Counted from the stretch's first letter, positions 3,893 to 54,997 are shown. The stretch is 64,000 nt of DNA from an uncultured Chitinophaga sp. (GCA_964549315.1 CAZJUY010000006.1:45639-109638); one strand, 5' to 3'. Made by a program: numbers and translations. The notes: generated by a model from the sequence alone, not told the origin.

Positions 3893-3911
3893 AATTTAAT
3901 TAGTATAAAGT

Positions 3912-3944
3912 AAAACGCCTCAGAATTTCTGAGGCGTTTTTTGC
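3912..3944. terminator. Rho-independent bidirectional terminator between convergent genes
   Basis: Perfect dyad 'aaaacgcctcagaa / ttctgaggcgtttt' followed by a T-run (ttttttgc). It lies between the stop at 3892 (+) and the stop at 3964 (-). Confidence 0.8.
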
Positions 3945-3963
3945 TTTTAATGATAGTGTTTTA

Positions 3964-5922: not shown

Positions 5923-5959
5923 ATATCAAAAATATAGCTTTTAAAATTAGAACACAATT

Positions 5960-35410: not shown

Positions 35411-37216
35411 ATGGCAAAAGACATTTTATTAGAGATAAAAAATTTAGTTACTGAATTTAGAACAGAAGAAGATTCTGTAAAAGCTGTTAACGATATTTCA
35501 TTTACACTTTCGAAAGGCGAAACAATTGGTATTGTTGGTGAATCAGGTTCAGGAAAGTCAGTAACATCATTATCCGTAATGCGATTGATTCCCAATCCTC
35601 CAGGTAAAATAACAGGAGGAGAAATAATATACCATTCTAAAACTCGTGGACCAGTTGATATTGTAAAGCTTTCTGAAAAAGAAATGCGCACATTAAGAGG
35701 GAATGAAATAGCAATGATTTTTCAGGAGCCAATGACTTCATTGAACCCTGTTTACACTTGTGGAGATCAAGTAATGGAAGCAATTTTGCTTCATCAAAAA
35801 TGCACTAAAAAAGAAGCGAAGGAAAAAACAATTGCACTATTCAACGAAGTACAACTACCAAGACCTGAAGCTATTTTTGATAGTTATCCTCATCAAATTT
35901 CTGGAGGTCAAAAGCAGCGTGTAATGATTGCTATGGCAATGAGTTGTAATCCCAATATTTTAATTGCAGATGAACCTACTACTGCATTGGACGTTACTGT
36001 ACAAGCTACTATTTTAGATTTGATGTTGAAACTGCAACGCCAGCACGATATGGGAATTATGTTTATTACACATGATTTAGGTGTTATTGCTGAACTTGCC
36101 GACAAAGTAGTAGTAATGTACAAAGGAAAAATTGTTGAACAAGGAAGTGTATTGGATATTTTTTCAAACCCTAAACACCCTTATACAAAAGGACTTTTAG
36201 CATGTCGTCCACCATTGAATAAACGTTTGCATTGGTTGCCAACAGTTTCAGATTTTATGAAAACAAACGACCAAGGCGAAATGACGGAAAGCAACCAAAC
36301 TGTTGCACAGGTTACAGATAAGTTGGTAGTTACAGGTCAGGAAAGAGAAGAACAACACAAAAAATTATATGCAAAAGAACCGATTTTGCAAATCAAAAAT
36401 TTAAAGACTTATTTCCCAATTAATAAATCTCTGTTTGGAAAAGCAAAAGATTTTGTTCATGCAGTAGATGATGTTTCATTTGATGTATATCCTGGAGAAA
36501 CACTTGGTTTGGTTGGAGAATCAGGTTGCGGTAAAACAACATTAGGAAGAACAGTATTGCGTTTGATTGAGCCAACTTCTGGTGATGTAATTTTCTTTGG
36601 GAAAAATATTACGAAACTCAAAGCCGAAGAAATGCGAGAGTTGCGTAAGGATATTCAAATTATTTTTCAAGATCCATATTCTTCATTGAATCCAAGGATT
36701 ACAATTGGAGAAGCTATTATGGAGCCAATGAAAGTACATGGTATTTTAGAAAATGATAAAGCAAGACGTGAACGCGTAATTGAATTATTGCATAGAGTAA
36801 ATATGACCGAAAGTCATTTCTATCGTTATCCGCATGAGTTTTCGGGTGGGCAACGTCAACGAATTTGTATTGCACGAGCACTAGCTTTAAAACCAAAATT
36901 TATTATTTGTGATGAATCTGTTTCTGCATTGGATGTTTCTGTTCAAGCACAAGTATTGAATTTGTTGAACGAATTAAAAAGAGAATTTGATTTCACCTAT
37001 ATTTTTATTTCTCATGACTTATCTGTTGTTAAATTTATGAGTGATAGAATGGTGGTAATGAATCAAGGTAAAGTGGTTGAAATGGGTGATGCTGATAGCA
37101 TCTACAATTCCCCTCAAAGTGAATACACACAAAAATTAATCAACGCAATTCCTAAAGGACAATTAGAAGATATAAAAGCTTCTATTGAAAAGAAAAAACA
37201 ACAGCAAGCAATTTAA
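35411..37216 (+). CDS. ABC transporter ATP-binding protein with two tandem ATPase domains (Dpp/Opp-type, YejF/GsiA-like)
   Basis: Two Walker A motifs ('GESGSGKSVTS', 'GESGCGKTTLG'). Two signature motifs ('QISGGQKQRVMIAMA', 'EFSGGQRQRICIARA'). Two Walker B motifs ('ILIADEPTTALD', 'FIICDESVSALD'). Confidence 0.9.
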   Translation: MAKDILLEIKNLVTEFRTEEDSVKAVNDISFTLSKGETIGIVGESGSGKSVTSLSVMRLIPNPPGKITGGEIIYHSKTRGPVDIVKLSEKEMRTLRGNEIAMIFQEPMTSLNPVYTCGDQVMEAILLHQKCTKKEAKEKTIALFNEVQLPRPEAIFDSYPHQISGGQKQRVMIAMAMSCNPNILIADEPTTALDVTVQATILDLMLKLQRQHDMGIMFITHDLGVIAELADKVVVMYKGKIVEQGSVLDIFSNPKHPYTKGLLACRPPLNKRLHWLPTVSDFMKTNDQGEMTESNQTVAQVTDKLVVTGQEREEQHKKLYAKEPILQIKNLKTYFPINKSLFGKAKDFVHAVDDVSFDVYPGETLGLVGESGCGKTTLGRTVLRLIEPTSGDVIFFGKNITKLKAEEMRELRKDIQIIFQDPYSSLNPRITIGEAIMEPMKVHGILENDKARRERVIELLHRVNMTESHFYRYPHEFSGGQRQRICIARALALKPKFIICDESVSALDVSVQAQVLNLLNELKREFDFTYIFISHDLSVVKFMSDRMVVMNQGKVVEMGDADSIYNSPQSEYTQKLINAIPKGQLEDIKASIEKKKQQQAI

Positions 37217-37226
37217 TAATTCAGTA

Positions 37227-39272
37227 ATGCAAAGTAGGAGAAGAATCAACATAGCATTGCTAGTATTATTGTTGGCTGCTGTTGTAGGTTTGATTGTTGT
37301 TGAAAAAAATAAAAAGACAGAGAAACTTTCTGTCTCTTCGAATATTACTTTCCAAGATTCAACATATTACTCTGAATTATATGCCGAGTTTTTTAATTTC
37401 GAAAATATTGATTTAGGTATAACTGCTTCTAAAAAGACTTATTCTGGAACGCAAAGCACTATGCTTACTCCTGAAATTGAGTTTGGTTTTGGAATTACTA
37501 AATCTATTACCCAACTATCGGTATTAAAAAATACAGAACAAGTTATCATTGATTTTATGTGCATGTCTCCAATTGTAGATAGTAGCGTTCATTATGTTTT
37601 GTCTGTGAGTAATGCTAAAAACGAATCCGTTTTTTGGGATGGAAAACCAATTAAAATTGAAAAAGCAAATACTTGGATAAAAAGTCAAATTAAATTTAGC
37701 ATTAGTCCAGAATTGCTTATTCCTGAAAATACATTTCAATTTTATTTATGGAATAGAGATAAAAAGGAATTATACGTTGATGATTTAAATTTCACACTGT
37801 ATGGAAAAGTGATATATAAAGAGGAAAAATCAACACAAATTTCGTCTAATTATTTTTTTGATTTTGAAACAAATGATGGTTTGTCGGGCACAGATAATTT
37901 AAAAGCTTGTACTTCTCATTCAGGTAAAATAGCTTGCGATTTGAGTGAAGGACAAGAGTTTGGTGTTTCAGTTATAAAAACAGTAAAAGAAATAAGTGAT
38001 GCGCCTTTAACAAAAATAAGTGCTAGTGTTTGGTTTTACTCATTAGAAGAAAATACAAATACGCACCTTACGGCTTCAGTAGTAAACGATAAAAATGAAA
38101 CAGTGTTTTGGGGAGGAAAAGGAACGGATACTGGAAAATTTCCTAAGAATCAATGGACAAAATTGAATGTTTCGTTTGCTTTGCCTAGCGATAAAATCTC
38201 TATGAATGATGTGGTTCAAGTAAATATTTGGAATAAAGGAAAAAATAAAATTATTGTTGATGATTTAGAAATTATTTATGGCGATCAGCCAGAAAGAAAA
38301 GGGAAACCAAATGTTATAGACCCATCAGCATTTACAGGGAGCAGTTTTGTTCCTGAAAAAAACAAGCCTCCTTTTCAAATTTTGTATTTGAATAAACAGA
38401 TTGTTGATATTGATGTTTTGAAAAATTATAATTCAAATGACCAGTTTTTTTCTGGTGATTTTGTTAAAGACAAAAATAATTTGGATGAATTACTTAGTAT
38501 AAAAAACAATAAAGCTGAATTGTTGAAATTCAATACTGAACAAAAACAATTTATGAGCGTTTGGAAAAGCAGTTCTGATAATGATTTGACTTCAACAGAA
38601 ATATGGAATTCCAATAATTATATTTTTTCTGCAGATTTTAATGGCGATGAGAAAACAGATTTATTGACGATAGATAAGACTTCAGGGGAAACCAAACTTT
38701 ATAATTTTGAAACAAATAAATTTATTTTAAAAAATACGTTAAAAGGCATAGACAAAAAGCATTTAAAATATTTGAACAATATGAATGTTGTTTCCAACTT
38801 TAATATAAATAAACTGCCTGCTTTAGTTTATTTCACTGAAAAAAATATGGTATTACTTCAGTTGAAGGCTGACAAATTGGAAGAAAATCAAACAAACTTA
38901 ACTGGAGACTTTATGATTTTTAAAACTGCAGATAAACTATTTTCTATAGTTTCTTCTTCTCAAAAAAACACTTTATTAAGATTGAATACAGAATGGCGAT
39001 TTGATTTACAGCTAATTGAAAAAAACAGTTCAGAAATTAGCATTAAAAATGTTTTAGATTTTAAAGGATATGCTAATGACTACAATCCTAAATATTACGA
39101 ATACACAAAAATTATAATAGGAAGATTTATGGATAAAAATAGTTCTTCTGTTTTGGTTGTTTCCTGCAATTGTAAAGACGATAAGTTTGATGGTGTGCTT
39201 TGTAATGAAATTGAAAATTTAAAAGAATTACCCAATTCAATTAATATTTATTCAGTAGATGATGTTAAATAG
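37227..39272 (+). CDS. Single-TM hypothetical protein carrying two copies of a ~130-aa beta-rich domain shared with the C-termini of the GT-C-like proteins further right
   Basis: The likely start is MQSRRRINIALLVLLLAAVVGLIVV at 37227; the tracked ATG at 37185 overlaps the ABC gene. Domain copies end 'FQFYLWNRDKKELYVDDLNFTLYG' and 'VQVNIWNKGKNKIIVDDLEIIYGD'. Confidence 0.6.
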   Translation: MQSRRRINIALLVLLLAAVVGLIVVEKNKKTEKLSVSSNITFQDSTYYSELYAEFFNFENIDLGITASKKTYSGTQSTMLTPEIEFGFGITKSITQLSVLKNTEQVIIDFMCMSPIVDSSVHYVLSVSNAKNESVFWDGKPIKIEKANTWIKSQIKFSISPELLIPENTFQFYLWNRDKKELYVDDLNFTLYGKVIYKEEKSTQISSNYFFDFETNDGLSGTDNLKACTSHSGKIACDLSEGQEFGVSVIKTVKEISDAPLTKISASVWFYSLEENTNTHLTASVVNDKNETVFWGGKGTDTGKFPKNQWTKLNVSFALPSDKISMNDVVQVNIWNKGKNKIIVDDLEIIYGDQPERKGKPNVIDPSAFTGSSFVPEKNKPPFQILYLNKQIVDIDVLKNYNSNDQFFSGDFVKDKNNLDELLSIKNNKAELLKFNTEQKQFMSVWKSSSDNDLTSTEIWNSNNYIFSADFNGDEKTDLLTIDKTSGETKLYNFETNKFILKNTLKGIDKKHLKYLNNMNVVSNFNINKLPALVYFTEKNMVLLQLKADKLEENQTNLTGDFMIFKTADKLFSIVSSSQKNTLLRLNTEWRFDLQLIEKNSSEISIKNVLDFKGYANDYNPKYYEYTKIIIGRFMDKNSSSVLVVSCNCKDDKFDGVLCNEIENLKELPNSINIYSVDDVK

Positions 39273-41973: not shown

Positions 41974-41983
41974 CACCTTGTCT

Positions 41984-42200
41984 TTTCGAACGAAACGTAG
42001 TGTAGAGAGAAAAGAAATCTTACAAATAATGAGATTCCTCTCTGCGGTCGGAATGACACATAAAAACTGTCATTTCGAACGGAATGAAATGAAGTGAGAA
42101 ATCTTACAAATAATGAGATTTCTCCTTACAGTCGAAATGACAAATAGGAATTGTCATTTCGAACGGAATAGAATGGAGTGAGAAATCTCTTAAAGTAGAC
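41984..42200. repeat. Array of ~85-bp REP-like repeat units (2.5 copies), each containing two hairpins, upstream of the GIY-YIG gene
   Basis: Unit 'TTTCGAACGGAATGAAATGAAGTGAGAAATCTTACAAATAATGAGATTTCTCC..GTCGGAATGACA....TGTCA'. Hairpin 1 is 'gagaaatct(N11)agatttctc'. Hairpin 2 is 'cggaatgaca(N9)tgtcatttcg'. Confidence 0.85.
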
Positions 42201-42210
42201 TTTTATTAAA

Positions 42211-42522
42211 ATGAACTACAATTATTTTATTTATATACTTACAAATAAGAATAAAACCGTACTATATATTGGAGTTACAAACAATTTGGAAAGAAGACTT
42301 TTAGGACACTCAAATATTTTCAAAAATAAGTTTAAATTTACGACTCGTTATAATTGTGTCCATTTGATTTATTATGAGAGGTTTTCAGATATTAATCAAG
42401 CAATAAAACGAGAAACAGAAATTAAAAAGTGGAGAAGGGAAAAGAAAGAAAATTTAATTAAATCAGTCAACCCTAAATGGGAATTTCTGAATGATGAAAT
42501 TAAAGAACGTTTTTTTGAATGA
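42211..42522 (+). CDS. GIY-YIG nuclease family protein (COG2827-type small URI-domain endonuclease)
   Basis: 103 aa. 'YFIYILTNKNKTVLYIGVTNNLERRLLGH' carries the GIY, YIG, Arg and His motifs. 'NQAIKRETEIKKWRREKKENLI' carries the catalytic Glu. Confidence 0.85.
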   Translation: MNYNYFIYILTNKNKTVLYIGVTNNLERRLLGHSNIFKNKFKFTTRYNCVHLIYYERFSDINQAIKRETEIKKWRREKKENLIKSVNPKWEFLNDEIKERFFE

Positions 42523-42525
42523 TGG

Positions 42526-42730
42526 GGTTTCTTCTCGCAATCAGAATGACAAACACGAAGCTGTCATTTCGAGTGAAGTGAAGCGAAACGAGAAATCTTT
42601 TAAATAATGAGATTTCTCCCTATGGGCGGAATGACAAATAGGGGATGTCATTTCGAACGAAATGCAATGAAGTGAGAAATCTTTTAAATAGTAAGATTCC
42701 TCCCAATGGTCGGAATGACAGTATAAATTT
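42526..42730. repeat. Second block (about 2.5 copies) of the same ~85-bp double-hairpin repeat, downstream of the GIY-YIG gene
   Basis: '...cagaatgacaaacacgaagctgtcatttcgagtgaagtgaagcgaaacgagaaatcttttaaataatgagatttctccctatgggcggaatgacaaataggggatgtcatttcgaacg...'. The six-frame ORF 42541..42906 (-) is just a translation of these repeats. Confidence 0.85.
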
Positions 42731-43805: not shown

Positions 43806-45677
43806 ATGTTTTCAAAAATTAACAAGAACAATAAAATTTCTCTTCTTGCAGTTTTTGTTATCTCTTTTATAATATTATACTTTCATTATACACTTCCTAG
43901 GTATAAATATTACGGATTTACAAAAGAATTTGAGTGGGATATTCTATCTTACTACTTGTATTTGCCTTTGACTTTTATTAAGCATGATTATGGGATAAGC
44001 GATTACGCTTATATTCAAACTATTTTTGAGCAGTATCATTTTTCTCCTTCTTTTTACCAAGCCAATCAGTTGCATAATGGTAATTGGGTAATGGTTTATA
44101 CATCTGGCATGGCAATTTTACAATTCCCCTTTTTTTGTATTGGACATCTTTGGGCTAACTTGGGAGGATATCCAATGGATGGATTTTCGTTCCCATATCA
44201 ATTTTGTGTTTCGACAGGGAATATGTTTTATATCATTTCTGGCATTTTTTTGATGAGAAAAATTTTATTGAACTATTTTTCTGACGGTATTGTATCGGTT
44301 ACTCTTATATTATTATTATTAGGTACAAATTATTTTCGAGAAGCGACAGACTATAATATGGGGCCTCACGCAATTCTTTTTGCATTATACTGTCTGCTGT
44401 TATTAAATACAATAAAATGGCATAAAACCCCGAAAATTAAATATTCTATACTTGTTGGAATTTCTGTAGGGTTTCTGACCTTAATTCGCCCAACAGAATT
44501 AATTTGTATTCTTATTCCAATTTTTTGGAATGTGAGTAGTCTGCAAACATTAAAAAATAAAATCAGTATTGTTAAACAAAATTGGAAACATTTACTAATA
44601 CTGGTATTTACGGTGCTCCTCGTTGGTTTGCCTCAAATAATTTATTGGAAATATTTAACCGGGTCATGGGTATATAATAGCTACGATAACCAAATATCTT
44701 TTGATATCTCCGAATCTCATTTATTTAAAATTTTATTTAGCTTTAGAAAAGGCTGGTTTGTATATTCTCCATTGATTGTTATTGCATTAATAGGAATCTA
44801 TTTTTTAGGTAGAAATAAATTAATGGAAGCGAGAAGCTCAATTGTTTTATTTATTATCTGCAATGTTTTTATTCTTTCTCATGTGCCTATTTGGTGGAAT
44901 GCTGGTAGTTTTGGGCAAAGATTTATGGTGCAATCTTATGCATTATTGGCACTTCCAATGGCTTGTTTTATAGAGATAATAATCTTTCAAAAAAAAATAT
45001 TTTACAAAATTCTATTAATTCCAATTTTTATCTTTCTTGTATTTTTGAATTTGTTTCAAACATGGCAATTTGTTAGATGGATTATTCCTGGAGATGGAAT
45101 TACAAAAGAATTTTATTTTCGGTCTTTTTTAAAAACTGCTGTTACAGAAGAAGATAGGTCTTATTTGGAATTACAAAGAACTTTTGATAATACTCAAAAA
45201 TTTGACGAGAATAATAAAGCCTATAAGTCAAAAATCCTTGCTTTTTATGATATTGAAAATTTCAAAAAAAATAATTTTGTTGATTCTGCAGGTCATGCTT
45301 TAAGTGGTAAAAAATCATTTATGATGACCAGTGAATATTGTTACTCTCCAGGTGTTGACACTTCATTCTTCGCAATAACCGCTAAGGATCATGCATGGAT
45401 AAAATTTAGTGTTTCTTTGTATTCTTTACGTGAATTAGAAGAGAAGGATGCAGTTATAGTGATGCACTTTTCTCATAAAGAAAAATTATATAGTTATATG
45501 GAATTCCCTTTTAAACAAGATCAAATTGCTGCCAAGAAATGGAATATTATAACAGCATATTATTTAACACCATCAGTTTTTTCAGAAGATGATAGGTTGA
45601 AAGCCTATGTTTGGTACAAAGGAAAAGATACATTATATGTTGATAATATCAAAATTGAGGCATTTGAAAAGAAATAA
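43806..45677 (+). CDS. Polytopic membrane protein, GT-C-superfamily-like, with a C-terminal extracytoplasmic beta-rich domain
   Basis: At least 10 TM segments in the N-terminal 420 aa. The C-terminal soluble domain ends 'LKAYVWYKGKDTLYVDNIKIEAFEKK'. The N-terminus 'MFSKINK' resembles that of the convergent neighbour. Confidence 0.6.
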   Translation: MFSKINKNNKISLLAVFVISFIILYFHYTLPRYKYYGFTKEFEWDILSYYLYLPLTFIKHDYGISDYAYIQTIFEQYHFSPSFYQANQLHNGNWVMVYTSGMAILQFPFFCIGHLWANLGGYPMDGFSFPYQFCVSTGNMFYIISGIFLMRKILLNYFSDGIVSVTLILLLLGTNYFREATDYNMGPHAILFALYCLLLLNTIKWHKTPKIKYSILVGISVGFLTLIRPTELICILIPIFWNVSSLQTLKNKISIVKQNWKHLLILVFTVLLVGLPQIIYWKYLTGSWVYNSYDNQISFDISESHLFKILFSFRKGWFVYSPLIVIALIGIYFLGRNKLMEARSSIVLFIICNVFILSHVPIWWNAGSFGQRFMVQSYALLALPMACFIEIIIFQKKIFYKILLIPIFIFLVFLNLFQTWQFVRWIIPGDGITKEFYFRSFLKTAVTEEDRSYLELQRTFDNTQKFDENNKAYKSKILAFYDIENFKKNNFVDSAGHALSGKKSFMMTSEYCYSPGVDTSFFAITAKDHAWIKFSVSLYSLRELEEKDAVIVMHFSHKEKLYSYMEFPFKQDQIAAKKWNIITAYYLTPSVFSEDDRLKAYVWYKGKDTLYVDNIKIEAFEKK

Positions 45678-45679
45678 AA

Positions 45680-47653
45680 CTATTGTAAGATAATGCTCAA
45701 GTTGTCAACATAAAAATTATTTTCGGAAGGGTTCCAAAAATAAATTTTTAAAATAGCATCCTTTGGTAAGTTATTTGGTAAAATAGATTTCATGCTTATT
45801 TCTTTCCAAACTTCAATTTCTTTAATTTTTTCTGGAATAAATAGTTCTTCTCTAAAAAGTGTTTGGTTTTCTTTTTCAACCGAAACAACTAGGTGAGAAG
45901 TATTACCTTCTTTACAAAAAATAAAAGAAGAAATAATGATTGTTTTTTTTGTGTCTAGCTCTAAAATAGGTTTTGTAATTCCAATGCTGTACTCGTTGTT
46001 TTTATTCAATTTTAAACTGTATTTGCCGTCAAAATATATTTCACTAGAAGTTTCAGAAACATCTTTACATCCTTCTTTTTTTTCGAATGATGTTTTATAA
46101 ACATCTACCGTGTCTTTGTTTGAGTCAATTCCTGCAAAACATTCAAAAACATCACATTTTGCGTTTTTGTTTTTTGTAATAATTTTTACAGGATTACATT
46201 CTAAATTGTTTTTTACAAATAGGGTATATCCCGTATTTATTTTTTTATAATTATCACACTCTTTAAATCCTTTCGAAAGAATAAAAGCATAATTAGCATT
46301 TTCTGGGTCTTCAAATTGGTTGTGAGATTGTACGTATATTATTTTATTAATAGAATCAAAGTTTAATTTTTTCCAGCCAAACCATTCATCCTTTGCAGAA
46401 AAATAGACATTTTTTTTAGCAAGCGCCTCTGCGCTATTTTTGTAGTTTTTAAATGCGCTTAAATCATAGTAAAAAGAAAAATCTTTAAATTTATAAGAGG
46501 CGCAAATAAAGATAACAGTATTCTCATCCTGCATTTTTTTTACCATAGGAACAAAGTGTTTCCAATCATCTTCTCGTTCTTGTGTTATTCTGAAAGATGA
46601 AAAAATAAACAGTAATAGAGGTAAAATGAATGCAAGTTTGTATACATTATTTAACTTAATGTTTGCAAAACAATAGGCTATAAGTAAAAATAGGCCCAAA
46701 CTACTATATAAAATATAACGAGTTAGAAATACAGGAGTGTATTGGGCTATAAAAAAATCCAATCCTATCGGAATAATAAATAATAAGGTAAAAACTGTAA
46801 AATATTTAGAATTGAAATTTTCGTAATACACCCCAATTTTTTTATTTACTATCACTAGAAAAACAAATAAGAATACTAATGTGAGGAATATATAAAACAA
46901 ATTATTATTACCCATTAACAAGTTCGTATGCCATCTAAAATCAGCATAGTTTGGTGCATGTGACCAAAACGATCCTTCTTTAGGAATATTAGATAACAAA
47001 ACATTTACCCATGGTAAAAATGCTAGACTTACTAAAATTTGGCTGGTAAAATAATAGACAACAATTTTTTTATTTTCTTTTAAGAAAAACCAAATACATA
47101 AAAATTGAACAACAAAAATAAAAATTGTTAAATAATGAGTGTAGAGGAGTAGAGTATTTGTTAGGAATAAAAAAATGATATCTCTTTTGTTTTGAGATTT
47201 AATAATATTGAAATAAAAATAAAAGGATAAAATGCATAACAATTGAATTAATGCATAGGGTCTTACTTCAGTAGCGTAAAACTGTTGTGCATTTGAAAAT
47301 AGAAAAAGAAAAGACACTAAATAAGCTGATTGTTTGTTTATGTGCTTTTTTGTAAACAAAAAAAGTACTAATCCTGCTAATGCGCTACATATTACAGAAA
47401 ACATTTTAGCTGACACATCAGAAATCCCAAATATTTTAATCCAAAAATGTAACAATGCTATATGCATTGGTGGATTTTGATCATGCAAAAAAATTTCTTT
47501 TAGTTCTGATAAGCTCTTTTGTGCTTGAAAAATACTGTAAGGTTCGTCACCATACAAACTTTCATTTGTAATTTCATAGCTTCTCACAAAGATGGTGAGC
47601 GATAAAAAAGTCAAAACAAAAAATAGTAAAGGTTTGTTAATCTTTGAAAGCAT
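45680..47653 (-). CDS. GT-C-family glycosyltransferase (ArnT/PMT-like, polyprenol-phosphate-sugar dependent) with a C-terminal beta-rich domain
   Basis: 'LYGDEPYSIFQAQKSL...HDQNPPMHIALLHFWIKIFG' is the first periplasmic-loop DE motif typical of the GT39/GT83 families. There are ~11 TM segments. The C-terminus is '...AILKIYFWNPSENNFYVDNLSIILQ'. Confidence 0.75.
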   Translation of the reverse strand: MLSKINKPLLFFVLTFLSLTIFVRSYEITNESLYGDEPYSIFQAQKSLSELKEIFLHDQNPPMHIALLHFWIKIFGISDVSAKMFSVICSALAGLVLFLFTKKHINKQSAYLVSFLFLFSNAQQFYATEVRPYALIQLLCILSFYFYFNIIKSQNKRDIIFLFLTNTLLLYTHYLTIFIFVVQFLCIWFFLKENKKIVVYYFTSQILVSLAFLPWVNVLLSNIPKEGSFWSHAPNYADFRWHTNLLMGNNNLFYIFLTLVFLFVFLVIVNKKIGVYYENFNSKYFTVFTLLFIIPIGLDFFIAQYTPVFLTRYILYSSLGLFLLIAYCFANIKLNNVYKLAFILPLLLFIFSSFRITQEREDDWKHFVPMVKKMQDENTVIFICASYKFKDFSFYYDLSAFKNYKNSAEALAKKNVYFSAKDEWFGWKKLNFDSINKIIYVQSHNQFEDPENANYAFILSKGFKECDNYKKINTGYTLFVKNNLECNPVKIITKNKNAKCDVFECFAGIDSNKDTVDVYKTSFEKKEGCKDVSETSSEIYFDGKYSLKLNKNNEYSIGITKPILELDTKKTIIISSFIFCKEGNTSHLVVSVEKENQTLFREELFIPEKIKEIEVWKEISMKSILPNNLPKDAILKIYFWNPSENNFYVDNLSIILQ

Positions 47654-47654
47654 G

Positions 47655-48374
47655 TTAGGAGCTGAAATTATACTTTAATATACACCAAATAGCTCTAAAT
47701 CCATCTTTCCAGCCAATTTTTTTGCCTTCTTCATAAGTTCTTCCGTAATAAGAAATTCCAACTTCATAGATTCGAATTTTTGGCACTTTAGAAATTTTTG
47801 CTGTTATCTCTGGTTCAAAACCAAAACGTTTTTCTTTTAGTTTTATATTTTGTATGATTTCTGTTTTAAATAATTTATAACAGGTTTCCATATCTGTTAA
47901 ATTTAAATTGGTAAACATATTGGATAAAAATGTCAAAAATTTATTTCCTATAGTATGCCAAAAAAATAAAATACGATGAGGTTCGCCACCAATAAATCTA
48001 GAGCCATAAACCACATCAGCAAAGCCATTTGCAACGGGTTTTAATAAAATATTATACTCTTCTGGGTCGTATTCTAAATCGGCATCTTGAATAACTATAT
48101 ATTCCCCAGTCGCTAATGAAATTCCTTTGTGTAATGCAGCTCCTTTTCCTTGATTATATTCTTGATTGAATAAGCGAATGTTAAATTGACTGTGCTCGGA
48201 AATATATTTTTCAATTACTTCTTTTGTTCCGTCATTTGAATAATCATTAACAATGATTATTTCTTTTTCAATATTATTTATTAATTCTACTGCAATTACC
48301 TTGTTTAATATTAGGTGAATTGTTGCTGCCTCATTATAAGCAGGAATAATTATAGATAATTTTTTAATTTGCAT
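47655..48374 (-). CDS. Family-2 glycosyltransferase, ArnC/DPM1-like (polyprenol-phosphate sugar synthase)
   Basis: '[14 protein letters not shown]', '[12 protein letters not shown]' and '[12 protein letters not shown]'. The stop (47655) is 2 bp from the stop/start region of the GT-C gene, an operon-like arrangement. Confidence 0.85.
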
Positions 48375-48376
48375 TT

Positions 48377-48467
48377 AATTAGAATAACTAATTCATTTTA
48401 ATTGCATTGTTTTTAAAAGCAATTCTTGTTTATTTGGATTCCAAAGATAAACTTTTAATTCGTCTCC
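48377..48467. repeat. Copy A of a 91-bp near-identical direct repeat (1 mismatch versus 50611..50701). It is a relic of the 3' end of the 50609..52504 gene and abuts the GT2 start codon.
   Basis: 'aattagaataactaat[t/c]cattttaattgcattgtttttaaaagcaattcttgtttatttggattccaaagataaacttttaattcgtctcc' is present at both sites. On the minus strand it encodes '...GDELKVYLWNPNKQELLLKTMQLK'. Confidence 0.9.
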
Positions 48468-48544
48468 CATTTTAATTTCAGATTGATTCTGTTATACTAA
48501 GTTATGCCGTCTTTAGTCCCATTCTACAATGGCGAATTAAAATT

Positions 48545-50440
48545 TCATTGCTGATTTTCAATAATCCAAAGTGCATCAATATAGATAGCAGAATCGAGTG
48601 GTATGTTTTTTGTTTTTGCTTTTTCCTCTATTTCTTTTACCCATGCTGGTACACTTTTAATTTCAAGCATTTTGTTAAAAAGTATTTTTTCTTTTGTAAG
48701 AGTGCTATCGTAAACAAAATTTAAATCTAATTTGAGAACATACGCAGCATTTTTTTTAAGGGCTGTTTCCTCTGATATGTTTTCATTTAATGCTTGTTGT
48801 TTAATAATAGCGTACCATTCAGGAGTTGATTTTATCTCTTTGCTTTTTGAATAAATTTTGTTTTTAGCAATAAATTGCTTTAGTTTAATTGGAGATAGAA
48901 TCCCAATAAAATTATAATCTACATCTATATAGGCCCAATTGTTATTATATTTTAAACAATAACTAATAGAATCAATTGCTTCTTTAGTCAATCCTACATG
49001 TTCAAGATTTTTTAAATAATCGCGATGAACCAATAGTTTAGTAATGTTGTCATCTTCTTTCATATAATAAAAAGGAGATGCGTTAGGGCTACTCATTAGT
49101 TCGGGGAAGTATCTTGAAATAAAAATTACATTATCCGGATTGTAAAGCCGAGGGTAATTTTCAAAAAACCAGTTGGATAAAGGCTTTGGTTGATTCGTAT
49201 CCCAATCATATTTAGTTAATGTGGCATGATAATAAACGGTAGCAATTTGTGTGATTATTGAGAAGTAAATAATAATCTTTTGAATTGCTTCTTTTTGTAA
49301 GTCCATTACTAAATAAAAAAAGTGCACCAAAATAAATCCACTAATATAAGTCACGTACCTTAAAACAACTGATTGCCCATGATTCCAGTCATATATTGTT
49401 GCGGAAATGCAAATAGCGCCTATCATTGAAAATACAATAATTAGATCTAAAAATGGGACACCTTTTTTTATAAAAACAATTTTTCTAACAATAAGAAAAA
49501 TATAAGCGAATAAAACAAATGGTATAGCTAGTATTGCACCTTGATTAACATCAAAAAAGAATCCAACAATTCTGTTTACAGTAACATAGTCAAAACTTAA
49601 TGCTCCTTGGTATTTTATCAAATTAGTTTCCCCAAAATGATAGAAATAGAATACTGAAGGGATAAAAACGATTAATATACTCAAGCCGATTTTAATTAAA
49701 TTTTTTAAATTTATTCCGTTGATATATATTACATAAAGTGATAATCCAGCTATGACAATGGCAATGGGTTGATTTTGTAATGAGGCTAAAGAAATTAAGA
49801 ATAACCCCCAATAATATTTTTTAGAAAGAAACAGCCAAAGACCTAATGTTGCAAAACAAACAGTTGCAATTTCAGGGTGTTGCCATGATAAATACCAATA
49901 GTTAGTGGAATAAAAAAATAAAAAAATAAATGCAGCTGTTTTAAATTCATCAAATACAGAGAATTTGAATAGTAGGAAACAGGTTATTAATAATAAAATT
50001 AAATTTGTTAAAATTCCTATAAACAAGGGATTAAAGCCAATAATATTGCAAAGAATTTTTGAAGGAATATTTAATAAAGAGTAGAAAAAAAAGTGAACAC
50101 TAAATTGCTTCCCATCTTTACTAGTAAAAAAGCGATAGTCAAAATCTAATTTTTTATGGTTCTTTTGTGCTACATACTCTTGAACTTCATCATAGTATTT
50201 TGATTTTTGATTGGTTTCCCACTTGTTTACTTTACAGTACGCCTTTTTAAATGATTCAAAATCTTCTTTATTTACGTCAGGACTAAAATGATTATACAGA
50301 GCCTCTGTTGTGATGGTATATTCTACTGCATCTCCATTAGGATACAAAGGTTTTTCCTTGCTTAAGCGAATAATTGCTAAAATGGTAATTAATAATAGAA
50401 CTACTGTTTTGTACATATTTATTTTCAAGCGCATGCTCAT
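48545..50440 (-). CDS. Polytopic membrane protein, GT-C-like (hypothetical)
   Basis: 'YPNGDAVEYTITTEALY' in the first loop, then ~11 TM segments. Its C-terminal domain differs from that of the neighbouring paralog-like genes. Confidence 0.55.
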   Translation of the reverse strand: MSMRLKINMYKTVVLLLITILAIIRLSKEKPLYPNGDAVEYTITTEALYNHFSPDVNKEDFESFKKAYCKVNKWETNQKSKYYDEVQEYVAQKNHKKLDFDYRFFTSKDGKQFSVHFFFYSLLNIPSKILCNIIGFNPLFIGILTNLILLLITCFLLFKFSVFDEFKTAAFIFLFFYSTNYWYLSWQHPEIATVCFATLGLWLFLSKKYYWGLFLISLASLQNQPIAIVIAGLSLYVIYINGINLKNLIKIGLSILIVFIPSVFYFYHFGETNLIKYQGALSFDYVTVNRIVGFFFDVNQGAILAIPFVLFAYIFLIVRKIVFIKKGVPFLDLIIVFSMIGAICISATIYDWNHGQSVVLRYVTYISGFILVHFFYLVMDLQKEAIQKIIIYFSIITQIATVYYHATLTKYDWDTNQPKPLSNWFFENYPRLYNPDNVIFISRYFPELMSSPNASPFYYMKEDDNITKLLVHRDYLKNLEHVGLTKEAIDSISYCLKYNNNWAYIDVDYNFIGILSPIKLKQFIAKNKIYSKSKEIKSTPEWYAIIKQQALNENISEETALKKNAAYVLKLDLNFVYDSTLTKEKILFNKMLEIKSVPAWVKEIEEKAKTKNIPLDSAIYIDALWIIENQQ

Positions 50441-50465
50441 TAAGTAAAAGTAATATTATCTTGTT

Positions 50466-50606
50466 ATCTTAATTTTTTTAGTCTGAATGTCAATCCAATT
50501 ATGAATACTTCCTTCTGTATAGGTTCTAAAATAGTAGAAAAATTCTGATTTGTAAATTCTAATTCAAAACATCTTTTATCTAATTTAATATTTTGTATGA
50601 TTCTCA
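50466..50606 (-). pseudogene. Decayed, internally deleted remnant of an ArnC-like GT2 gene
   Basis: The minus-strand ORF 'MRIIQNIKLDKRCFELEFTNQNFSTILEPIQKEVFIIGLTFRLKKLR' aligns to residues ~172-215 of the intact GT2 at 47655..48374 ('[42 protein letters not shown]'). It shares a 15-nt identical stretch 'aatcatacaaaatat'. Its ATG sits directly after copy B of the 91-bp repeat, just as the intact GT2 follows copy A. Confidence 0.6.
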
Positions 50607-50608
50607 TT

Positions 50609-52504
50609 TTAATTAGAATAACTAATCCATTTTAATTGCATTGTTTTTAAAAGCAATTCTTGTTTATTTGGATTCCAAAGATAAACTTTTAATTCGTCTC
50701 CTGATTTAGTTTGAATAGGAATATCGTTCGCAGAAAAATTCGCACTGAATACACCTTTTGAACTATAAATGAAATCATTTAATCGGTAATTTTTCCAAAA
50801 ATATAGTGAGCCCTTTTCTTGTAGTGACATTATAAAAAATACATTCCCAGCTATATTTTGGTTAGTTTCAAATTCTACTTGGCAAGAAAGAGCTGTTCTG
50901 CCCTTTGGCAAACTGTCGAGTAAAACAATGTTAATTCCCGGACTATATTCAACTTCCGAATTTATTTTAAATGATGAATAATTAGCAATTGTATCAATAA
51001 AAATGCTTGTTTTTTTGAAAATTAATTTTGGTTTTGCTAACACATTTTTAGTAATAGGATAGATCTTAATTATTTCTAATGAATCAACATTTTCATTTTT
51101 TAAATCTTCTGGTCTTAAAAAAAAATAGTCGTCTAAATAGCTAATTCTTTTTGCACGCATTGTTTGGTTTAACCAGTTAAGTTGGTTTGTATTTCTATAA
51201 AAATTTATACTACTTTCTAATGATAGTGGAATGCCTATTGATAGATTAAATTTTTCAGACGACACTTTTTTTATTTTTTCCAAATCGGATAACATGTCTT
51301 TTGTTTCGCAATCGTCTTTCCACTCATAAACATATTTAAAATTAATCGAAAACAGGAAATGTACAATCACGAATAAGGCGAACAGATGAAGACAAACTTT
51401 GTATATATTCTTTTTCAACATTAACTCTTTTACTAAAAAAATAAATACAACTAAAAAAATAGCATATAAAAACAAGACTGCTCTTTCTATCAAATACAGC
51501 GTGCCCAATAAATAATGTTGTAAAACAGTAAAAAATAATATTCCTAGGAATAATAAAAGCATTACCGTTAAAGAGGATAAGTTTTCTGATTTTTTATTTT
51601 TTAAAAAATTGAAAATACTATAGTATAATGCTATGAATATTACAATAAGAATAAATCCCTTGGAAAGTCTTATTAAATAGTATGAAAAATCTAGTCCGTA
51701 CCATAATCGTGGAATAATAGTTCCTAGTGTATCGGTCCATAATCCACTTTCGCCACCCATAAACAACGCTCCAGCTTTACGTAATTCAAAAGAATAGGGT
51801 AGTATTAGAAACAAGAAAGAACCGAATAGGAATGTTGGTAGTAAAAGTTGGTAAATGGTTTTTTTAATAGCATTTATCTTGTTAGTGTTTTTATTATAAT
51901 TGTTATAGAAAAAAATCAGAATGATAATACAGTACAGAACGAAAAAGTAGTTTAATAATGTTAAATTACCTAGTGTGCCTAATGCTGCAAATAGTAGAGA
52001 AATTACAGCATATTTTATTTTAATTTTTTCTGAATTAAACTCAAACAAATAGTATATGCTTGGCATTAAAAATCCTAAAGAAATTCCATATCCGCGAGAT
52101 AATGAAAAAAAATCTAGCATAAAAGGGTTTAAATTCAAAATTAAAAAAGCAGAAATAGAAACCCATTTATTGTTTAATTTGAGAGTTAATTTAGCAGAAT
52201 AGAAAAGAAAAAACAGGTGAGAAAATAGAGTAGTTAGTCGAAGCGTAAATTCAGAAACGCCAAATAGTTTTGTGAAAAAAATCCCTCCAATTGAATTTAG
52301 TATATGATTGTTTGCTGACATCACTCCAAATTCCTTTGGATAATATATCCCGTGCTTAATAAATTCTAAATATGTATAAGATTCATCCCAAGTAATTGAA
52401 AGAAGGTAAGCTCGAGTTACAGTGTATGAAAAAATTAAAACTCCAAAAACAATGATTGTTATGAATGCAATCTTATTTTTGGAGTAAGGATTATTATTTA
52501 GCAT
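50609..52504 (-). CDS. Polytopic membrane protein, GT-C-like, with the shared C-terminal beta-rich domain
   Basis: 'SITWDESYTYLEF' is a DE-type first-loop motif. There are ~12 TM segments. The C-terminus 'GDELKVYLWNPNKQELLLKTMQLKWISYSN' is encoded by repeat copy B. Confidence 0.6.
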   Translation of the reverse strand: MLNNNPYSKNKIAFITIIVFGVLIFSYTVTRAYLLSITWDESYTYLEFIKHGIYYPKEFGVMSANNHILNSIGGIFFTKLFGVSEFTLRLTTLFSHLFFLFYSAKLTLKLNNKWVSISAFLILNLNPFMLDFFSLSRGYGISLGFLMPSIYYLFEFNSEKIKIKYAVISLLFAALGTLGNLTLLNYFFVLYCIIILIFFYNNYNKNTNKINAIKKTIYQLLLPTFLFGSFLFLILPYSFELRKAGALFMGGESGLWTDTLGTIIPRLWYGLDFSYYLIRLSKGFILIVIFIALYYSIFNFLKNKKSENLSSLTVMLLLFLGILFFTVLQHYLLGTLYLIERAVLFLYAIFLVVFIFLVKELMLKKNIYKVCLHLFALFVIVHFLFSINFKYVYEWKDDCETKDMLSDLEKIKKVSSEKFNLSIGIPLSLESSINFYRNTNQLNWLNQTMRAKRISYLDDYFFLRPEDLKNENVDSLEIIKIYPITKNVLAKPKLIFKKTSIFIDTIANYSSFKINSEVEYSPGINIVLLDSLPKGRTALSCQVEFETNQNIAGNVFFIMSLQEKGSLYFWKNYRLNDFIYSSKGVFSANFSANDIPIQTKSGDELKVYLWNPNKQELLLKTMQLKWISYSN

Positions 52505-52512
52505 GAATGAAT

Positions 52513-53169
52513 TTATTCAATAATCATTTCTGGTATTTCTCCTTCTACAATTAGTTTTCCTTCCGTAGCATTTTTTATTTGCTCAACACTAATGCCAGGT
52601 GCACGTTCTAATAATTTAAATCCTTGTGGTGTAACATCCAGCACTGCTAATTCTGTTACTATTTTTTTTACACATTTTACTCCTGTCAATGGCAAAGTAC
52701 ATTTGGTCAAAAGTTTAGATTCACCTGCTTTATTTACATGTTGCATTGCAACAATAATATTTTTTGCTGATGCAACTAAATCCATTGCGCCACCCATTCC
52801 TTTTACCATCTTGCCTGGTATCTTCCAATTGGCAATATCTCCATTGTCGGCAACTTCCATTGCACCCAGAATAGTTAAATCTACTTTACGTGATCTAATC
52901 ATTCCAAAGCTCATAGCTGAATCAAAAAATACAGAACCAGGAACTGTAGTGATAGTTTGTTTTCCTGCATTTATTAAATCAGGGTCTTCTTCTCCTTCAA
53001 AAGGAAATGGTCCCATTCCAAGTAACCCATTTTCAGATTGTAAAACAACATTCATTCCTTGAGGAATATAATTAGCCACTAACGTAGGAATACCAATTCC
53101 AAGATTTACGTAATAACCATCTTTAATTTCTTTTGCGATACGTTTCGCTATTCCAACCTTGTCTAACAT
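52513..53169 (-). CDS. scoB: 3-oxoacid CoA-transferase subunit B
   Basis: 'VNLGIGIPTLVANYIP', 'VVLQSENGLLGMGP' and 'SFGMIRSRKVDLTILGAMEV'. Length is 218 aa. Confidence 0.85.
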   Translation of the reverse strand: MLDKVGIAKRIAKEIKDGYYVNLGIGIPTLVANYIPQGMNVVLQSENGLLGMGPFPFEGEEDPDLINAGKQTITTVPGSVFFDSAMSFGMIRSRKVDLTILGAMEVADNGDIANWKIPGKMVKGMGGAMDLVASAKNIIVAMQHVNKAGESKLLTKCTLPLTGVKCVKKIVTELAVLDVTPQGFKLLERAPGISVEQIKNATEGKLIVEGEIPEMIIE

Positions 53170-53259
53170 ATTAATTTGAAAATTTGAAAGTGTGTCAATT
53201 TGAAAATGGTATTCTCGTTAACACATTATCTGTTTTACTTCGATTCCGTTTTTAATGTT

Positions 53260-53625
53260 TTAATTTGAGTTTATTATAGTTTTATTTTTTGAAGAAGAAA
53301 TAATCTTCGACAATATTTTAACAATCTCTTTTATTTCTTTTTGTAGCAATTCACAATCAGGGTAATTTTCCGATTTTTGGCACAACAATAACCAATACTC
53401 TGTTTCATCTGCTTCTTTGGCTGCAATTTTCATTTTGTGAATAAAATCTGCCTTGCTTTCTGCATTTTGCGCCTCTCTAACATTTGCTCCAATTGATGTT
53501 CCTGACTTTAATAATTGATTTGCAATTACATATTTTCTGTTGGACTCCAACTGTTCGGCAAACTCAACAATCAATAAAGCAAACTCAAACGTTTTTTCAA
53601 CAATAATATTTGGTTTCTCTTGCAT
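53260..53625 (-). CDS. Four-helix-bundle protein (TIGR02436 family, homolog of the 23S rRNA intervening-sequence protein), inserted between scoA and scoB
   Basis: 'KTFEFALLIVEFAEQL...IANQLLKSGTSIGANVREAQNAESKADFIHKMKIAAKEADETEYWLLL'. Confidence 0.8.
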   Translation of the reverse strand: MQEKPNIIVEKTFEFALLIVEFAEQLESNRKYVIANQLLKSGTSIGANVREAQNAESKADFIHKMKIAAKEADETEYWLLLCQKSENYPDCELLQKEIKEIVKILSKIISSSKNKTIINSN

Positions 53626-53732
53626 AGAAATTTTAATTCCTTTTTTAATTTTTTCGTTTTCTCTATTGGAACAGACATCAATCTTTTAATGATGTCAGCA
53701 TTTTCAAATTTCCAAATTGAAAAATTTCCAAA

Positions 53733-54440
53733 TTATTTTTTCCTAACCGTTCGCTGTTCAATTCGTTTTTCATAGTTTACTCCTTGAAAGATTCTGTGTA
53801 CATATATTCCTGGTGTATGAATATGATCTGGATTTAATTCTCCAGAAGGAACTAACTCTTCTACTTCTGCAATTGTTATTTTTCCAGCCATTGCCATCAT
53901 AGGATTAAAATTTCGTGCAGTTTCTCTAAAAATTAAATTGCCATGAGTATCTCCTTTCCAAGCTTTCACAATAGCAAAATCTGCATCAAAAGCCATTTCC
54001 ATTAAAAATTCTTTTTCTGCACCATCTACTTTAAAAGTTCTTGTTTCCTTTCCAATTGCTACTTCTGTTCCAACACCAGCAGGAGTGAATATTGCAGGCA
54101 TTCCGTATCCCGCTGCTAAACAACGTGTAGCTAATGTGCCTTGTGGAATTAATTCTACTTCCAATTCACCACTTAATAATTGACGTTCAAATTCAGCATT
54201 TTCTCCTACGTAAGAAGAAATCATTTTTTTTACCTGACGTGTTTTAAGCATTAAGCCAATTCCAAAATCATCAACACCAGCATTGTTTGAAATACATGTT
54301 AATCCTTTTACTCCTTTTTTTACAATTGCTGAAATGCAATTTTCTGGAATTCCACATAAACCAAAACCGCCAAGCATTAAAGTCATATTGTCTTTAATAT
54401 CATTTATGGCTTCATCAGCATTTTTTACTGTTTTATTCAT
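53733..54440 (-). CDS. scoA: 3-oxoacid CoA-transferase subunit A
   Basis: 'DNMTLMLGGFGLCGIPEN', 'CISNNAGVDDFGIGLML' and 'ELEVELIPQGTLAT'. Length is 235 aa. Confidence 0.85.
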   Translation of the reverse strand: MNKTVKNADEAINDIKDNMTLMLGGFGLCGIPENCISAIVKKGVKGLTCISNNAGVDDFGIGLMLKTRQVKKMISSYVGENAEFERQLLSGELEVELIPQGTLATRCLAAGYGMPAIFTPAGVGTEVAIGKETRTFKVDGAEKEFLMEMAFDADFAIVKAWKGDTHGNLIFRETARNFNPMMAMAGKITIAEVEELVPSGELNPDHIHTPGIYVHRIFQGVNYEKRIEQRTVRKK

Positions 54441-54451
54441 GATAAATAATT

Positions 54452-54997
54452 CTATTTTATATTCTTAAGTTTATAACCTACTTTTTCTCTTGGTATATTA
54501 TTTTCTTTCTTTTCTAAAAGCTCGTCCAAATATTGAAATATTAGTTCAATGTTCTTACTTTGATTTCCAAGTTTATGTCTAATTTGTTCAATCTCAGTTT
54601 TTAGTTCAGAAGTATCTATAAGTACTTGTTTTATTTTTGTAAATATTCTTATTATTTGAATATTTACACCAATTGCACGTTTGCTATTAAGAACACTAGA
54701 TAGCATTGCCACACCTTGTTCTGTAAAAGCAAAAGGGGCATATCTTAATCCTATTTTGTCAGCTTTGGAGGTCACATTTTGTGATCTCCAAAGTTCAAAT
54801 TCCATTTTTGTTAATTCAAACATAAAGTCTGAAGGAAACCGATCAATATTACGTTTTACAGATTGTTTTAAAACTCTTGTTTCAACTCCATATAATACTG
54901 CCAAATCTCTATCTAGCATTACTTTTTGTCCTCTGATGAAATATATTTGATTCAATACGATTTCTTCAGATAAAATAATCTCTTTTTTCCCTGACAT
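54452..54997 (-). CDS. ORF6N-domain protein (phage antirepressor/KilA-N-related DNA-binding domain)
   Basis: 'IRGQKVMLDRDLAVLYGVETRVLKQSVKRNIDRFPSDFMFELT' matches the ORF6N consensus. There is a C-terminal coiled coil. Confidence 0.75.
   Translation of the reverse strand: MSGKKEIILSEEIVLNQIYFIRGQKVMLDRDLAVLYGVETRVLKQSVKRNIDRFPSDFMFELTKMEFELWRSQNVTSKADKIGLRYAPFAFTEQGVAMLSSVLNSKRAIGVNIQIIRIFTKIKQVLIDTSELKTEIEQIRHKLGNQSKNIELIFQYLDELLEKKENNIPREKVGYKLKNIK

Follow-up and report, generated by a model that had tools for sequence, protein, structure and literature searches.

A probable recombination scar, marked by a duplicated gene tip and a glycosyltransferase remnant, in a GT-C island of a Bacteroidota genome

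The repeat, the GT2 remnant and the gene between the copies

A stretch of 64,000 nucleotides (nt; i.e. the window) from an uncultured Chitinophaga sp. (CAZJUY010000006.1:45639-109638) contains an island of glycosyltransferase genes between scoB and a STELLO-like gene. One junction within this island is considered here, at which two near-identical copies of the 3' tip of a membrane-protein gene lie on either side of a further gene. All of the genes concerned are on the minus strand and are, in order of transcription, scoB (52513-53169), X (50609-52504), a 47-codon open reading frame (ORF), Y (48545-50440), 77 nt of non-coding DNA, one copy of the repeated tip, an intact family 2 glycosyltransferase gene (i.e. 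GT2; 47655-48374) and Z. X encodes a 631-amino-acid (aa) polytopic membrane protein whose C-terminal domain carries the motif GDELKVYLWNPNKQ, and Y encodes another membrane protein of 631 aa.

A repeat finder and MAFFT pairwise alignment identified a 93-nt direct repeat at 48375-48467 (copy A) and 50609-50701 (copy B), with an offset of 2234 and a single mismatch (t at 48393 versus c at 50627). Similarity in the alignment dropped abruptly at both edges of the block. The first-pass annotation of this DNA had described a repeat of 91 bp with one t/c mismatch, and both the repeat and the mismatch were reproduced; the true length is 93 nt, inclusive of the complete TAA stop of X, with a possible diverged extension of 15 nt. 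Copy B is functional coding sequence and comprises the last 30 codons (originally put at ~25) and the TAA stop of X. Copy A is, as had been claimed, a non-coding relic of the X 3' tip lying immediately upstream of the intact GT2 start, and the sequence of the joint is TAAATG, such that the relic stop abuts the GT2 ATG. The substitution at 48393 is private to copy A and converts a TGG (W) codon of the relic frame to TGA, which accounts for the previously noticed mini-ORF of 25 codons (i.e. MGDELKVYLWNPNKQELLLKTMQLK followed by a stop). No copies of the block other than A and B were present in the window or in 117 loci fetched for comparison (designated by L numbers), and when 26 nt of the block were searched as an exact pattern in metagenome contigs there was no match.

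The intact GT2 (239 aa) matches PF00535 (E 1.1e-34, residues 7-176) and has a DxD motif (QDADLEY). This protein is highly conserved across the Bacteroidota, with at least 598 of 600 candidate stretches being confirmed as relatives; the GT2 loci that were retained (n=80) exhibited 69–89% identity. The initial description of GT2 as ArnC-like is correct at the superfamily level but there was no equivalog-level match, as NCBIfam scores were 56.9 bits for ArnC (PRK10714, cut-off 529), 102.8 bits for AglJ (cut-off 325) and 49.4 bits for PpgS (cut-off 370). A match to a dolichyl-phosphate hexose transferase model was also far under the cut-off.

A remnant of a second GT2 adjoins copy B on the minus strand (50456-50608). 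This remnant contains GT2 codons ~171-185 and ~197-239, arranged in the same order as in the gene, and ends ~15 nt before the Y start codon. The 47-codon ORF (50464-50607) exhibited 9/16 identities to residues 172-187 of the intact GT2 by BLASTP (E 0.004). A profile was constructed from the window GT2 and 80 orthologues from other genomes and was searched against six frames of 50441-50612. A second frame was found to hold IRIYKSEFFYYFRTYTEGSIHNWID, which aligns to an almost invariant stretch of the profile (positions 194-222; 14.3 bits), and the remnant scored 14.3-14.9 bits against the GT2 profile. In an unbiased scan of 22,002 overlapping six-frame segments of 50 aa from six loci, the remnant was recovered at E 0.015 after correction. 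The other matches were to true GT2 genes, to other GT2-type genes (weak matches that included the second GT2 of the island) and to one further relic in L081 (E 0.017). The overlap of the two remnant segments implies a deletion of ~40 nt (about codons 186-196) that changed the frame, and within the 47-aa ORF the GT2 frame extends over no more than the initial ~17 codons. The 47-aa ORF as called is hence a frame chimera, and the remnant is a genuine 3' pseudogene of GT2. The original proposal of a decayed and internally deleted GT2 copy was therefore upheld by a profile similarity that survives correction. The alignment proposed for the ORF (i.e. residues ~172-215) was correct for residues 172-187, with the remaining homology being in another frame.

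The identical 15-nt stretch said to be shared by the remnant and the intact GT2 was found at 50602-50588 and 47859-47845. Segment 1 of the remnant carries IIQNIKL, which is within a hypervariable stretch of the GT2 family and was found as an exact match only in the GT2 of the window and its nearest relatives (i.e. L083, L001, L092 and L093), indicating that the parent of the remnant was a GT2 typical of this clade. Nucleotide identity to GT2 was 77% for segment 1 and about 56% (by hand count) for segment 2, which lacks residues that are invariant across the phylum. An origin from a divergent functional GT2 subfamily was rejected. A word-index search was empty, and a HMMER scan of 1.84e9 representative proteins with segment 2 (E ≤0.001) produced a single match, P0174 (E 8.1e-4, 34.5 bits), which was judged to be spurious with 32% identity, a length of 998 aa and alignment to query residues 9-31 only. 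As no natural protein convincingly resembled segment 2, the divergence of the remnant is read as decay.

For Y, 49 homologues were detectable and there was no sequence-level match in Pfam, NCBIfam or PDB. An AlphaFold2 model generated with 28 homologues had a predicted local distance difference test score of 88.7, and the five best Foldseek matches of this model in PDB were all GT-C enzymes (i.e. ALG12, ALG3, AftA, AglB and PglB) with probabilities of 0.84-1.00 but weak E values (0.013-0.16) and TM-scores of 0.30-0.47. Residues D37 and E40 do not vary among 28 family members and are located just after the first helix, where they would correspond to the conserved acidic residues expected of the first extracytoplasmic loop of GT-C proteins. 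Y is hence predicted, by structural modelling, to be a membrane protein with a GT-C fold. X itself had no Pfam match; several X homologues have PF13231 and one is named ‘glycosyltransferase family 39’ (i.e. PMT_2/GT39-annotated relatives). Z (45680-47653), which is directly downstream of GT2, as in L083, encodes a 657-aa GT-C protein with a match to PMT_2 (PF13231, E 1.2e-8). By analogy to the established GT2/GT-C pairs GtrB/GtrC and ArnC/ArnT, the one conserved GT2 is likely to load a sugar onto polyprenyl phosphate and the variable GT-C enzymes to transfer this sugar to surface acceptors.

A motif of the form K.Y.WN....L.VDN/D (e.g. FYLWNRDKKELYVDDL and KIYFWNPSENNFYVDNL) was observed in or at the end of the island proteins encoded by 37185-39272, 43806-45677, 45680-47653 and 50609-52504. 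This pattern suggests a common C-terminal beta-sandwich or carbohydrate-binding-like domain, and the last strands of this putative domain would be encoded by the 93-nt repeat.

The X–GT2 junction in related genomes

The closest homologue of X (95% aa identity) was present in two Logan assemblies, L083 and L084. Nucleotide identities between L083 and the window were 96.8–98.7% for the flanking genes, 95.5% for X, 89% for GT2 plus Z and 93.8% for the STELLO-like gene. In both assemblies X is directly joined to GT2 (TAAATG) and there is no Y and no remnant. One segment of L083 (11784-11891) can be aligned with the end of X as well as with copy A and its left flank, and L083 has no counterpart of 48482-50607. 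The window and L083 therefore differ by a clean insertion/deletion of 2,234 bp exactly where X meets GT2. The extra bases of the window consist of the GT2 3' stub, a complete Y, the 62-nt spacer and a repetition of the final 93 (possibly 108) nt of X. The suggestion that Y sits as an insert between two copies of a junction is thus consistent with the comparison of related strains that had been recommended. Adjacency of X and GT2 was also observed in L081, L002 and L093 and, as this order extends to distant relatives, represents the older state, in agreement with the ancestral membrane gene–GT2 unit envisaged in the first-pass annotation.

Orthologues of Y were located in several of the comparison loci. 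In L081 the orthologue (78% aa identity) is placed after Z, in L085 and L087 the preceding gene is divergently oriented and resembles W (i.e. the PMT_2-like gene at 43806-45677 of the window), and in L093 it is directly after GT2 in the order X-GT2-Y (GT2, 3203-3922; Y, 3923-5836). The order in L093 is a context that would leave a GT2 3' end before Y. All of the Y orthologues that could be placed were within the island between scoB and the STELLO-like gene but in different slots.

In a four-way alignment of the block, copies A and B agreed at all informative states, with three private changes in L083 and one in copy A. Copy B differed from L083 at 3/93 positions, all of which were private to L083, and ~20% of positions differed between the block and the X gene of L081. 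Divergence between the two copies (1/93, i.e. ~1%) is hence no more than that between the window and L083, while the GT2 remnant is heavily decayed, with about 56–77% identity. This disparity had been remarked upon at the outset and indicates that the remnant greatly exceeds the repeat in age or that homogenisation has acted much more strongly on the repeat. Either an old GT2 remnant–Y segment was therefore moved recently or the 93 nt were homogenised by conversion.

The joints of the insert were examined by alignment. To the right of copy B the sequence reads TAATTAAAATGAGAATCATACAAAAT and codons 169-176 of the intact GT2 read TTTAAAACAGAAATCATACAAAAT, with a microhomology, TTAAA(A), being common to the stop region of X and to GT2 codons 169-170. 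On the left side of copy A, nucleotides 48468-48482 (TCTGAAATTAAAATG) encode SEIKM in frame with the relic. This 15-nt segment matches the equivalent sequence of copy B (encoding IQTKS) at 9/15 positions and that of the L081 X gene (encoding TEIKN) at 12/15 positions, in register; the consensus of the X family at this site is x-E-x-K-x, which precedes GD.LK.Y.WNP. Either the X-tip relic continues into these 15 nt in diverged form or they represent microhomology at the joint. Identity falls from 92/93 inside the block to 9/15 at the left edge, and this abrupt change, together with the likeness of copy A to the L081 X gene at this point, points to a recombination or conversion boundary. The remaining 62 nt after the Y stop codon (48483-48544) form a unique spacer with no significant match in the window or the 117 loci. 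A reading of the whole 77-nt spacer as a decayed continuation of X was rejected, as global alignment as compared to shuffled sequences was not significant (p about 0.08).

No inverted repeats were present at the ends of the insert, which contains no genes besides Y and the GT2 stub and has the same GC content as the flanks with no compositional anomaly. No Rfam matches were obtained for 47000-53500 at E values of up to 1, there were no terminator-like sites in or near either copy, and promoter-like sites occurred at chance level only.

Origin of the arrangement

The arrangement is probably a recombination scar in a hypervariable GT-C glycosyltransferase island of a Bacteroidota genome, located between scoB and the STELLO-like gene and generated by a displacement-type event. 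A module of the type X-GT2'-Y (i.e. the type found intact in L093) would have been joined upstream of a resident X-tip-GT2-Z arrangement. One side would have been joined by homologous pairing within X or at its end, and the other by illegitimate joining with the help of microhomology. The former 3' tip of X would thereby have been pushed downstream whilst still attached to GT2, in a manner resembling homology-facilitated illegitimate recombination or the ‘C-terminal displacement’ of Rhs and type VI secretion system (T6SS) loci. The redundant GT2' would then have lost codons 2 to ~170 and decayed further. Near-identity of the tip relic would be due to recent gene conversion from X or to a recent move of an already old GT2 remnant–Y segment. 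Several of the features expected of a displacement footprint were seen (i.e. a displaced X tip, a gained segment, TTAAA at one joint and 9/15 nt at the other), and the order of events was inferred. In essence this interpretation agrees with the recent recombination or gene conversion, and the shuffling of cassettes in a surface-glycan locus, that had been envisaged for this DNA.

Several points weigh against a displacement-type event. No donor and no second genome with the filled arrangement were found. A single displacement cannot explain a 99%-identical tip beside a remnant with about 56–77% identity, and an extra step is needed, either conversion or the acquisition of a pre-decayed cassette. 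The extension of 15 nt is short and its recognition was post hoc. The polarity of the difference to L083 is ambiguous, as recombination between copies A and B could have removed Y from L083. Displacement would also presuppose DNA uptake in this organism, by natural competence or another route, and the window derives from a single 117-kb NCBI contig.

A credible but less probable explanation is a recent copy-choice (i.e. template-switch) insertion of a pre-decayed segment consisting of the GT2 remnant, Y and the spacer, such that the repeat would be a true target duplication. In the course of replication or repair, the nascent strand would have exited at the X stop, at TTAAA, copied this segment from a different molecule or locus and re-entered 93 nt behind the point of exit so that the X tip was copied twice. 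The 15 nt on the left side of copy A would merely be the microhomology used at the re-entry joint. Short imperfect identities at both edges of the insert (TTAAA and 9/15 nt), very sharp block edges with one mismatch in 93 nt, a remnant that is much older than the repeat and a unique spacer are all in keeping with this mechanism. The 15 nt, however, read as X-like (SEIKM versus xExKx) with a 12/15 match to the L081 X gene, which would be unexpected of a random donor. Also no source locus was found with a pre-decayed remnant upstream of Y, and the region upstream of the Y orthologue in L081 has no trace of GT2.

It is unlikely that the locus is an old tandem of two modules, X-GT2'-Y and X-GT2-Z, which was reduced by deletions that removed most of GT2' and most of the second X. 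Conversion would have maintained the tip, and L083 and L084 would have lost the left-over segment by recombination between copies A and B. The L083 arrangement is the exact pop-out product predicted by this explanation and a remnant so heavily decayed is in keeping with an old event; the spacer also has a weak, non-significant resemblance to X upstream of the block (z about 1.5). More events would be required than for the other routes (i.e. two large deletions and, in a non-coding tract of 93 nt, sustained conversion), the 117 loci included no genome with two complete modules, and the similarity to X ends abruptly ~15 nt to the left of the block.

An assembly artefact, in which a metagenome path threads a 2.2-kb cycle or a segment of a second strain through a shared 93-nt node, is very improbable. 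The source is a single NCBI contig for whose proteins no second occurrence was found, a close relative lacks the insert, and an assembly graph would have a repeat node at this site. Both copies, however, have unique flanks, and the joint of Y, spacer and relic must physically exist in some genome. The same type of scar was found in independent genomes (i.e. L081 and L082, from different sources, and L043), and a length of 93 nt is below that of typical reads and of the largest assembly k-mers. The remaining explanation, and one which we regard as scarcely tenable, is the previously suggested conserved junction element (i.e. a promoter, leader or RNA kept identical by selection), for while copy A keeps the native sequence upstream of GT2 and TATCTTTG within the block would fit the Bacteroidota -7 box (TAnnTTTG), the block is the 3' end of X, evolves in relatives as ordinary coding sequence (3/93 in L083; ~20% in L081), has only two copies with no exact match in metagenome contigs, gave no Rfam, terminator or above-chance promoter signal, and in the case of copy B is followed by a dead gene stub with no need of expression signals.

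Two classes of mobile element were considered and rejected. A transposon would require a transposase gene and terminal inverted repeats, which are lacking, and the duplication of 93 nt compares with an expected 2-15 bp. An integrase-mediated islet was rejected as there is no tyrosine or serine recombinase ORF in 48375-50701 and the neighbouring genes encode glycosyltransferases and a CoA transferase.

Similar scars, known systems and variability of the island

Comparable scars were found elsewhere. In L081, and also in L082, which was assembled independently, a second copy of the final 59 nt of GT2 (4219-4277) is present at 5868-5926 with 85% identity. This relic of the GT2 tip reads IGWKAIFRDLWCILKYNL, scores 15.7 bits against the GT2 profile and is located directly after an inserted gene encoding a 530-aa protein of no assigned family and before the next gene. 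A systematic self-comparison of the 117 fetched loci and part of the window (1.7 Mb) identified this layout in L043 as well, where an 80-nt 3' tip of fumC (14696-14781 and 16332-16417) brackets a gene for a 429-aa protein without a Pfam match. A related variant was observed in L044, where the 212-nt 3' tip of a Por_Secre_tail gene (10048-10259 and 11660-11871) is repeated just upstream of that gene. The L043 and L044 arrangements may represent further tip-duplication scars outside the glycosyltransferase island. As L081 and L043 show the same layout as the window, the footprint is not peculiar to this locus. It is conceivable, although doubtful, that these cases reflect a general and so far undescribed route in the Bacteroidota by which a single gene is inserted at a gene junction and becomes bracketed by the intact tip and a relic tip of the upstream gene.

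The closest parallels are with displacement arrays. Rhs, contact-dependent inhibition (CDI) and T6SS effector-immunity loci contain such arrays, whose suggested origin is homology-facilitated illegitimate recombination (PMC5361080; Jackson 2009, PMC2935791, as cited in PMC5361080). As in the window, a new module is found downstream of a conserved anchor, with the old 3' end and the downstream gene being shifted and kept as a relic; there is no integrase or transposase, and footprints gather in a hypervariable locus. Unlike those arrays, the genes here encode glycosyltransferases and not toxins and immunity proteins, only one displacement step is visible, and the displaced and live tips are nearly the same, the displaced one being neither a different variant nor an expressed orphan. 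Homology-facilitated illegitimate recombination is itself described for transformable bacteria and for conjugation in E. coli (PMC3240628; de Vries and Wackernagel 2002 and Prudhomme 2002, as cited in PMC5361080). The likeness would lie in the combination of a homologous anchor with an illegitimate microhomology joint and in the gain of foreign DNA beside the anchor. The classical outcome, however, is a deletion of recipient DNA and not a direct duplicate, and hence the fit is by analogy.

A functional parallel is provided by the gtrABC clusters that glucosylate the O antigen of Shigella and Salmonella, which have a conserved GtrB and a variable GtrC (PMC3688519, PMC3259042). The two probably have a common functional logic, in which a conserved cytoplasmic GT2 loads a sugar on polyprenyl phosphate and variable, horizontally exchanged polytopic transferases decorate a surface glycan. 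In contrast to gtrABC, the locus is not carried by a prophage and yielded no GtrA-like flippase, and X, Y, Z and W share one GT2 in a chromosomal island, with X, Z and W having a C-terminal beta-strand domain. Campbell-type integration and pop-out is similar in that the insert lies between direct chromosomal copies and the relative has the exact recombination product, but differs in that there is no circular intermediate, replication function or integrase and the repeat is only 93 nt. The present case adds a further example, located in a glycosyltransferase island, to an already known type of scar and does not constitute a new kind of element.

Other parts of the island and its flanks also varied between the window and its relatives. 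W (43806-45677; 623 aa), which has a PMT_2 match, has no counterpart in L083, where a different PMT_2 gene (14649-16289; 546 aa) is present, and in L081 the slot of W is occupied by Y. The N-terminal ~200 nt of Z are unusually diverged from L083 (55–78% identity in 100-nt windows). The replacement of W and the divergence of the start of Z point to further recombination breakpoints in the island. Between the second GT2 of the island and the STELLO-like gene, a GIY-YIG gene (42211-42522; 103 aa) is flanked by five hairpin-containing repeat units, mostly 84 nt apart, at 41979-42727; L083 also has copies of this hairpin-repeat family, in the interval from scoB to X (about 9791-9986) and close to its STELLO-like gene. 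An ORF6N-domain gene (54452-54997; site 54445-54997) represents a precise insertion of one gene at the position of the 8-nt PBP1A/scoA spacer of L083, with no flanking repeat being noticed. Between scoA and scoB is a gene for a 23S-rRNA-intervening-sequence protein (53260-53625) with the arms of a 56-nt imperfect inverted repeat on either side (53172-53227 and 53680-53735). The scoA-scoB spacer holds a PDDEXK_3 gene in L081 and nothing in L085, and these differences in content mark it as a second slot for small genes.

These observations provide a base-level account of how one strain gained, or a relative lost, a gene for a surface-glycan transferase. For annotation, the 47-aa and 25-aa ORFs should be recorded as pseudogene fragments and not as genes, and Y and X as putative GT-C transferases. 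The stretch from scoB to the STELLO-like gene can be viewed as a slot-like island in which one conserved GT2 serves a changing set of GT-C proteins. Y would add one more transferase for the lipid-linked sugar supplied by this GT2, and GT2 would retain its native upstream sequence. The 93-nt repeats would permit deletion of Y by RecA-dependent pop-out, regenerating the arrangement of the relative. If the route by which single genes become bracketed by gene tips is a general one, near-identical tips would constitute a recombination switch for gaining or shedding single GT-C transferases, and thereby producing surface-glycan variants, without a dedicated recombinase. For the species represented by the window, the findings suggest that a simple repeat-mediated insertion/deletion underlies differences between strains in the decoration of glycans.

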